Shown here: positions 49,770 through 50,133 of the stretch, in pieces
How the letters are laid out: each line of letters begins with the position of its first letter
Numbering within the stretch: position 1 is the stretch's first letter
Source of the DNA: an uncultured archaeon
GTDB taxonomy: Archaea > Asgardarchaeota > Heimdallarchaeia > Heimdallarchaeales > Heimdallarchaeaceae
Assembly (NCBI GenBank): GCA_964534625.1
Contig: CAZHRF010000012.1
Span: 1 to 64,000, forward strand
Direction of reading: 5' to 3'
DNA length: 64,000 nucleotides
The notes under the pieces: generated by a model
The model's database searches: none
The model's input: only the letters and a program-made list of their open reading frames with translations
What the model was told of the DNA's origin: nothing
Program-made: the position numbers and the translations under genes

Positions 49770-50113
49770 AACCCTAAAACAGCACTTTCGCCCTATGGGT
49801 CATCTACGACCCATGTCGGGTGTGGAGGAAAGATTCAACGTTCTCAAGGACAGTACGATAGTGCCCCCTGTAAAAAATGCTCTAAACGGGTGAATACCCA
49901 CTATAATGCGGCCTTGTGGTTAGAAGCCCAATACCTTTGCCAGCACGCTTCCAACAAAAACCTCACCTCCCGTTCACCTTCCATCCTTCCATTACTAGGT
50001 CTCTCCCATCCTCCAACAACATAATGTTCACTTTCCCCTGTTCGCTCCCCAGGGGTCCGATTTGTGGAAAATACAACTTTTCACAAGTTCATAGGGATGC
50101 GCATGCACTTCAC
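49770..50113 (+). mobile_element. tnpB: Truncated IS200/IS605/IS607-type element: 3' end of tnpB plus right end
   Basis: Start-less frame 49761-50024 reads SPYGSSTTHVGCGGKIQRSQGQYDSAPCKKCSKRVNTHYNAALWL (Zn ribbon + RuvC-III). Hand-counted GC is ~48% for 49801-50100, against AT-rich flanks. The island ends in TTCAC at 50109-50113. Confidence 0.78.
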
Positions 50114-50133
50114 TCTCGTAAAAAGAATACTTT
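49890..50133 (+). ncRNA. Candidate omega-RNA scaffold plus flanking guide
   Basis: Hairpins CCCCTG/CAGGGG (50035-50055) and TTGTGGAAAA/TTTTCACAA (50062-50086), located after the tnpB 3' end. The 5' boundary is a guess. Confidence 0.5.

Follow-up and report, generated by a model that had tools for sequence, protein, structure and literature searches.

A probable IS607 deletion scar in a heimdallarchaeal genome and its parent family of TnpB proteins with a RuvC-III histidine

The question raised by the locus

The window (the whole stretch of 64,000 nucleotides analysed here, from an uncultured archaeon of the Heimdallarchaeaceae) contains a GC-rich island with the tail of a tnpB gene followed by what looks like an intact omega-RNA. 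Is this an RNA cassette that outlived its protein and is still in use, or is it the residue of a transposon? An earlier note, made from the sequence alone, favoured the first answer: it described a non-autonomous element that could load a TnpB in trans, and took a histidine at the place of a catalytic Asp as the mark of an atypical, rearranged or nuclease-dead TnpB clade of Asgard archaea. We find that the segment 49783-50101 is very probably a scar left by a recent deletion in an IS607 transposon, no longer mobile and most likely inert. The window locus itself is ordinary transposon debris.

The fragment and its parent element

The island stands out clearly, with a GC content of 0.46-0.49 across 49800-50099 against 0.27-0.31 in both flanks. 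The plus-strand frame that had escaped the list of open reading frames is open over 49761-50021, then meets a stop, and has the motifs ascribed to it, except that its first 22 nt (49761-49782, encoding SSKNPKT) are host DNA. What remains of the transposon is its 3'-most 319 bp (49783-50101, plus strand), i.e., the tail of tnpB, the omega-RNA scaffold, and the right end. The tail (49783-50024, plus strand) consists of the final ~80 codons and the stop; the start codon, RuvC-I, and RuvC-II are all missing, and it cannot produce a protein. It includes, on the same strand, the codons of a zinc site, His 49812, Cys 49821, Cys 49869, and Cys 49878 (49812-49880), which are H552, C555, C571, and C574 of the parent protein P0121, and the codon of the RuvC-III His that replaces the catalytic Asp (49899-49901, H581 of P0121). 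In Pfam, the peptide matched only Cas12f1-like_TNB (PF07282), under the cut-off (E 0.014), and it matched the family profile at E 1e-24. A search with the peptide detected relatives in 37 out of 61 related genomes, many as open frames of 580-690 aa, and its homologs carry Heimdallarchaeota protein names. A search of the region in Rfam gave no family (best E 7.5), and a scan for sigma-70 promoters and terminators was uninformative because the host is an archaeon.

The search for full-length parents was successful. A DNA pattern search located L104, which has the end of tnpA and a tnpB frame of 638 codons, and a cluster look-up located L120, which is complete from left end to right end. The two come from two metagenomes and are identical at 2411 of 2413 positions with different flanks, so a close lineage has seen recent transposition of this element. 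The remnant is identical to L104 at 318 of its 319 positions, with sharp edges on both sides, and the same holds for L120. Identity is equally high over the coding and non-coding parts, and the sole substitution (49888, plus strand) changes Gln to Arg. The earlier note was thus right to see in the island the 3' end of a tnpB gene and, after it, an RNA scaffold that is still intact up to the right end.

The parent is a 2.7-kb IS607 element encoding a serine-recombinase TnpA and a TnpB of 621-638 aa. The gene upstream of tnpB, in the parent and its relatives, encodes a MerR-HTH serine recombinase that scores above the NCBIfam cut-off (NF033518: 166 bits for L120 and 154-170 bits for three relatives, cut-off 110). 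Another contig of the genome studied here (C6) carries the site of the L104 insertion in its empty form. It reads TACCG|TCATTC, the right end of the element reads TGCG|TCATTC, and there is no duplication. Most of the loci with a surviving left end show ACCG|T there; the motif occurs at eight left ends in relatives, at L120, and at a remnant on contig C3. Hence the parent uses a short target motif and a small core for insertion and does not duplicate the target, as is usual for IS607 elements. Its target motif (TAM) is predicted to be ACCG(T) and its own end TGCG(T); the variants of the ends are better fitted by a putative GT core than by CG. A relative of the parent, 79% identical (L103:183-3665), is interrupted upstream by two long transposase-like frames.

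The right end and its RNA scaffold

The earlier note placed the end of the element at TTCAC (50109-50113) and expected other copies to share it. Instead, identity to the parent stops at 50101, and the other right-end copies diverge at the equivalent base: all 11 terminate in ...GGGA(T/A)(G/A)CG or a one-base variant. Moreover, TTCACTCTCG is found in the element-free locus of a sister species (described below), and the element does not end at 50109-50113. In the main subfamily, the right end is GTGCG or a variant of it, and the next base is T in 29 out of 32. The view of TTCAC as an IS605-type end motif falls with this, since the element is an IS607, its transposase a serine recombinase, and TTCAC host DNA. 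Membership of IS200/IS605 (Y1 transposase, TTCAC/TTCAT right end) was rejected on the same grounds.

We recovered the two hairpins that had been described, at 50035-50055 and 50059-50089 (plus strand), even if the folding z-score of -1.8 is modest on its own. In the eight copies of the window subfamily, 99% of the cells of hairpin 2 are paired, with no double-sided changes. The loop of hairpin 1 (50043-50049) provides the 5' strand of a pseudoknot, and 50094-50101, where conservation stops in every copy, provides both its 3' strand and the true right end (plus strand). Within the subfamily (eight sequences) the two strands are able to pair but do not covary. In 31 relatives, however, the equivalent helix and pseudoknot covary, with 97.7% paired and double-sided changes in 3 of 7 pairs, a result reached by none of 500 shuffles. 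Because related sequences can beat shuffles without any structure, slid controls matter too: they gave 25-47% paired for the pseudoknot, against 98%.

Since conservation ends at 50101 and the pseudoknot closes there, a guide would start at 50102, or at 50103 if the core is GT, and the host flank at 50102-50121 (plus strand) occupies the guide position. The guide originally proposed (50114-50133) is 11-12 nt out of register and consists of host DNA from the orphaned start region of a deleted gene.

Origin of the fragment

A sister species, ~89% identical, keeps both neighbours of the fragment and lacks the element (locus L119). These neighbours are host genes on the minus strand, encoding a TPR protein on the left (47746-49635) and an AstE/AspA-family hydrolase on the right (50198-51094). 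Between them, L119 has ~965 bp that include a minus-strand grpB-like gene (236 aa, PF04229). Homology between L119 and the window reaches 49788 on the left and restarts at 50101. At the left junction (49783-49788, plus strand), host DNA passes into the interior of tnpB through the microhomology CACTTT (CTCTTT in the sister species), which between host and tnpB is exact over 4 bp and near-exact over 6 bp. On the right, relics of the grpB-like gene persist on the minus strand (50102-50117) and match the gene start of L119: the start codon (50104-50102) and a Shine-Dalgarno-like GAGAGTGA (50117-50110). The TTCAC of the window lies within this orphaned start region. No GrpB homolog was found in the assembly, which is 89.8% complete.

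These observations suggest a scenario in two steps. First, as expected from established IS607 biology, TnpA would have placed the 2.7-kb element at the grpB-like gene's start codon. The core of this site would differ from the usual ACC-GT, with G-C next; the equivalent site of the sister species reads AGTG|C, not ACCG|T, and L119, being only ~89% identical, does not give the exact pre-insertion sequence of the window. Second, a deletion through the 4-6 bp microhomology would have fused the interior of tnpB to the host sequence that lies upstream of the TPR gene, with loss of the ~965 bp of host DNA including grpB, the left end, tnpA, and ~560 codons of tnpB. The deletion step follows from the comparison with the sister locus, whereas we infer the order of events and the repair route. 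The locus would thus be a clean record of two events, the insertion of an IS607 element and a microhomology deletion after it, by which the host lost a gene. The intact look of the RNA scaffold reflects nothing more than the recent date of the deletion.

We also considered a target duplication GCACTT flanking both sides, which was rejected because the sister locus shows that both copies are mostly host sequence. At E 1e-30 there were no AstE orthologs in five genomes of the family; the sister locus came from the cluster look-up. Contigs of the source runs, which drop rare variants, showed neither an empty allele nor a joint.

The breaking of Logan contigs at a 46-bp repeat (50053-50098), shared with a remnant on contig C34, might suggest that the assembly joined unrelated pieces across it. 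No short-read contig spans the repeat, and the join comes from the assembly and from synteny with L119. Yet single contigs span the left junction (49783) in all four runs, the sister species also has these two flanks as neighbours, and the GCG end of the fragment is that of the parent, unlike the ACG end of C34. We regard a chimera as extremely improbable.

The surroundings showed some further features. The counterpart of the deleted gene (L119:6999-7709) combines an N-terminal RadA-like helical piece with a GrpB/dephospho-CoA-kinase C-terminal-like domain. In L119, ~240 bp upstream of the AstE gene (window-oriented 2798-3040), a small repeat that matches several contigs of the window's genome is probably an IS605-type miniature. 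The NYN gene of the sister locus is inverted. Two genes from the fragment, the window encodes a stand-alone ketosynthase-like frame of 554 aa (45918-47582, plus strand).

Other remnants and the use of the RNA

Four further right-end remnants occur in the genome, of ~200 bp (C34), ~80 bp (C9), 56 bp (C16), and 20 bp (C19). With the fragment at 49783-50101, this makes five loci with a common right end and five different 5' ends. Three others retain only the left end (C3:107511-106968, minus; C13:34053, minus; C78:2083, plus), and none lies near 49783; a pattern search for left ends of this type detected the one on C3 alone. The pseudoknot of the C34 copy has 3 of 7 pairs broken and the C16 copy lacks hairpin 1. 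Together, the five right-end and three left-end remnants show that both element ends decay in this genome.

A mobile miniature element with TnpA acting in trans would account for the right end common to five loci. The rest of the evidence is at odds with it: the left end is missing, the copies share no 5' boundary, the left junction is a microhomology to the host sequence, and part of the host DNA is gone. Furthermore, the only IS607 tnpA of the genome (on C3) has four stops, leaving no intact TnpA, and excision of IS607 requires both ends (10.1101/2023.11.20.567912). The proposal of a non-autonomous element is therefore largely refuted, and we give it almost no credit; the locus is better explained as a deletion scar in the place of a host gene.

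The other way for the fragment to matter is as a stand-alone omega-RNA, with a guide from 50102-50103, that loads a cognate TnpB in trans. Its scaffold is identical to that of the intact parent, the genome holds the four other right-end remnants, and there is TATA-like host sequence at ~49720-49729. Against this, profile and tblastn searches for a cognate TnpB returned only the window fragment in an assembly that is 89.8% complete and in which repeats may be missing, as they often stay unassembled. In four source runs, read depth over 49783-50050 is the same as on either side, with an increase confined to the 46-bp repeat that other remnants also carry. This speaks against the presence of a near-identical full copy in the population. 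The other TnpBs of the genome are Asp-type, with RNA ends unlike that of the fragment, and nearly all are 5'-truncated: eight are fragments that keep their 3' ends (C64, C27, C30, C7, C4, C16, C17, and C19) and one, of 425 aa, is whole (C42:8057). A search of the genome in either guide register, original or corrected, revealed only chance-level matches, none unique or flanked by ACCG. One exact 17-mer match to the guide in IMG/VR has CGGT upstream and lies on a GC-rich contig, so it lacks the motif; we take it as chance. Finally, the pseudoknot is lost in older remnants, and left ends remain as often as right ends. Use of the RNA in trans is thus very unlikely. The intact-looking omega-RNA on this fragment is a warning: it is no evidence of selection.

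In many relatives (L028, L066, L070, L071, L087, and other g4 loci), tnpA is decayed or missing and a tnpB of ~640 aa is intact. Where the end has changed from CG to TG or from CG to CA, the pseudoknot loop has changed to match. These patterns hint at selection on TnpB and its RNA after the loss of mobility.

The RuvC-III histidine of the parent clade

The His and the HxxC zinc ligand, attributed by the earlier note to an atypical Asgard clade, are indeed traits of the whole clade. Of 121 representatives at 50% identity, 116 have His at position 581 and the other 5 have Gln; none has Asp. His is also present in the full-length parents, and we rejected its interpretation as decay. Conservation of this His goes along with that of the Asp of RuvC-I, the Glu of RuvC-II, and the zinc ligands, both in 40 full-length relatives and in an alignment of 46 proteins. 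At 50% identity, D401 (RuvC-I) is Asp in 114 of 114 representatives, and E496 (RuvC-II) is Glu in 108, Asp in 20, and His in 1. In the 46 full-length proteins H552, C555, and C571 are invariant and C574 nearly so (at 50% identity: C555 123/126, C571 123/123, C574 119/120). A compensating role for the acidic D567 (YD) was discarded, as this residue is not invariant (102/123). The model of the parent TnpB (pLDDT 88) has its best Foldseek/VIA matches in Cas12f, IS607 TnpB, and Fanzor2. In an alignment with Cas12f, the RuvC-III His falls on the Asp of NADxNAA and H552 on the first zinc-site Cys.

Does the His mark a loss of cutting? The family could bind DNA or RNA only, as a TldR-like protein or a transposition helper. 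It never has the third acidic residue, a literature search gave no activity test of the Asp-to-His IS607 clade (searches on Heimdall Cas12/RuvC yielded nothing), and some TnpBs process RNA yet fail to cut double-stranded DNA in screens (PMC10278001). However, the RuvC-I Asp is invariant and RuvC-II is Glu or Asp in 128 of 129 representatives, His143 of Thermus thermophilus RuvC replaces Asp138 of Escherichia coli in an active site (PMC3592405), the elements are mobile with variable guides, and a target ACCG unlike the element's own TGCG would fit self/non-self discrimination by a cutter. We thus consider a nuclease-dead family, one of the options named in the earlier note, rather doubtful.

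By analogy with other IS607 TnpBs, the complete parent, with D401-E496-H581, probably performs RNA-guided cutting. Its TnpB would bind the right-end RNA, use the flank as guide, and cut the empty donor site beside ACCG(T), so that the element is retained; H581 would serve as the third metal ligand. With slightly less assurance, we extend this to an Asgard-centred IS607 clade of RNA-guided DNA cutters with oversized TnpBs (580 to ~1780 aa), D-E-H residues (D-D-H in some giants), an H-C-C-C zinc site, and ACCG(T). The giant members have 800-1784 aa, some with D-D-H: P0154 (L112:1732-5715), P0260 (L113:5001-8339), P0213 (L114:1159-4707), P0170, and P0175. P0260 (1112 aa) is still behind a MerR-resolvase TnpA. 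For three of these giants the called neighbouring genes were looked up, and none is a Cas gene.

Asp-to-His TnpBs had already been catalogued computationally (PMC10691335). What is new is the exact parent, the predicted TAM ACCG(T) and RNA end, and the complete, recently mobile L120. With the exact parent, its predicted TAM, and its RNA end, the D-E-H enzyme is directly testable. If it works with ACCG(T), this would settle whether RNA-guided nucleases can use His as their third RuvC ligand. It would also bring a GC-rich motif into a repertoire that is AT-rich for most of the TnpBs characterised so far (PMC10278001).

Comparison with known systems

The closest known systems are IS607 elements such as CboIStron (10.1101/2023.11.20.567912) and that of ISFba1 TnpB (PDB 8iaz). 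The parent shares with them a MerR-HTH serine recombinase followed by tnpB, asymmetric ends, absence of target duplication, a short core common to target and right end, and a terminal pseudoknot directly before the guide, which CboIStron TnpB needs (10.1101/2023.11.20.567912). The fold of its TnpB is also similar to that of IS607 TnpB (VIA Z 12.7, rmsd 5.5, 336 aligned). It differs in size (~640 aa versus ~400 in known IS607 TnpBs), in the RuvC-III His and the H-C-C-C zinc site, in its motif (ACCG(T) versus TGGG), and in the absence of an intron, and it scores only 19 bits with the NCBIfam IS607_TnpB profile (cut-off 350). The window copy is only a fragment of such an element.

TldRs are domesticated and their RuvC has decayed. 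The clade resembles them (10.1101/2023.11.30.569447) in being derived from TnpB, with an altered RuvC and an RNA scaffold that is kept. Unlike them, it retains the invariant D401 and Glu or Asp at E496, has variable guides, and includes near-identical copies at different sites. With neither a decayed RuvC triad nor a loss of mobility, it was not classed as TldR. Asgard aCas1-TnpB elements have an aCas1 neighbour and a downstream GTTCACTCA motif (PMC10691335). A link to these, prompted by TTCACTC, was dismissed: the upstream gene is an IS607 TnpA and TTCACTC belongs to the start region of a host gene.

In the 59-TnpB screen, the rearranged ortholog reported as active belongs to clade RII-r5 (PMC10278001). 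The TnpB clades with a rearranged RuvC-III, Asp being changed to His, are RIIIr-4, where the zinc finger is lacking and activity is expected by the authors (PMC10691335), as well as the archaeal branches Ser-6 and RIIIr-6 (Altae-Tran 2023, PMC10691335). The parent clade shares with them a conserved RuvC-III His, the other two catalytic residues, and its occurrence in archaea. RIIIr-4, however, includes RHH/MazE-linked TnpBs, whereas the parent clade lies behind an IS607 TnpA and keeps a zinc site; it agrees with RIIIr-4 in the change of Asp to His and not in the absence of the zinc finger, and its assignment to RIIIr-4 is not supported. A more distant parallel is T. thermophilus RuvC (Asp7, Glu70, His143, Asp146; PMC3592405), where His likewise occupies the third metal-binding position of an active RuvC fold. 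That enzyme is a Holliday-junction resolvase with a fourth acidic residue, the equivalent of which in the clade is mostly Asn (100/121).
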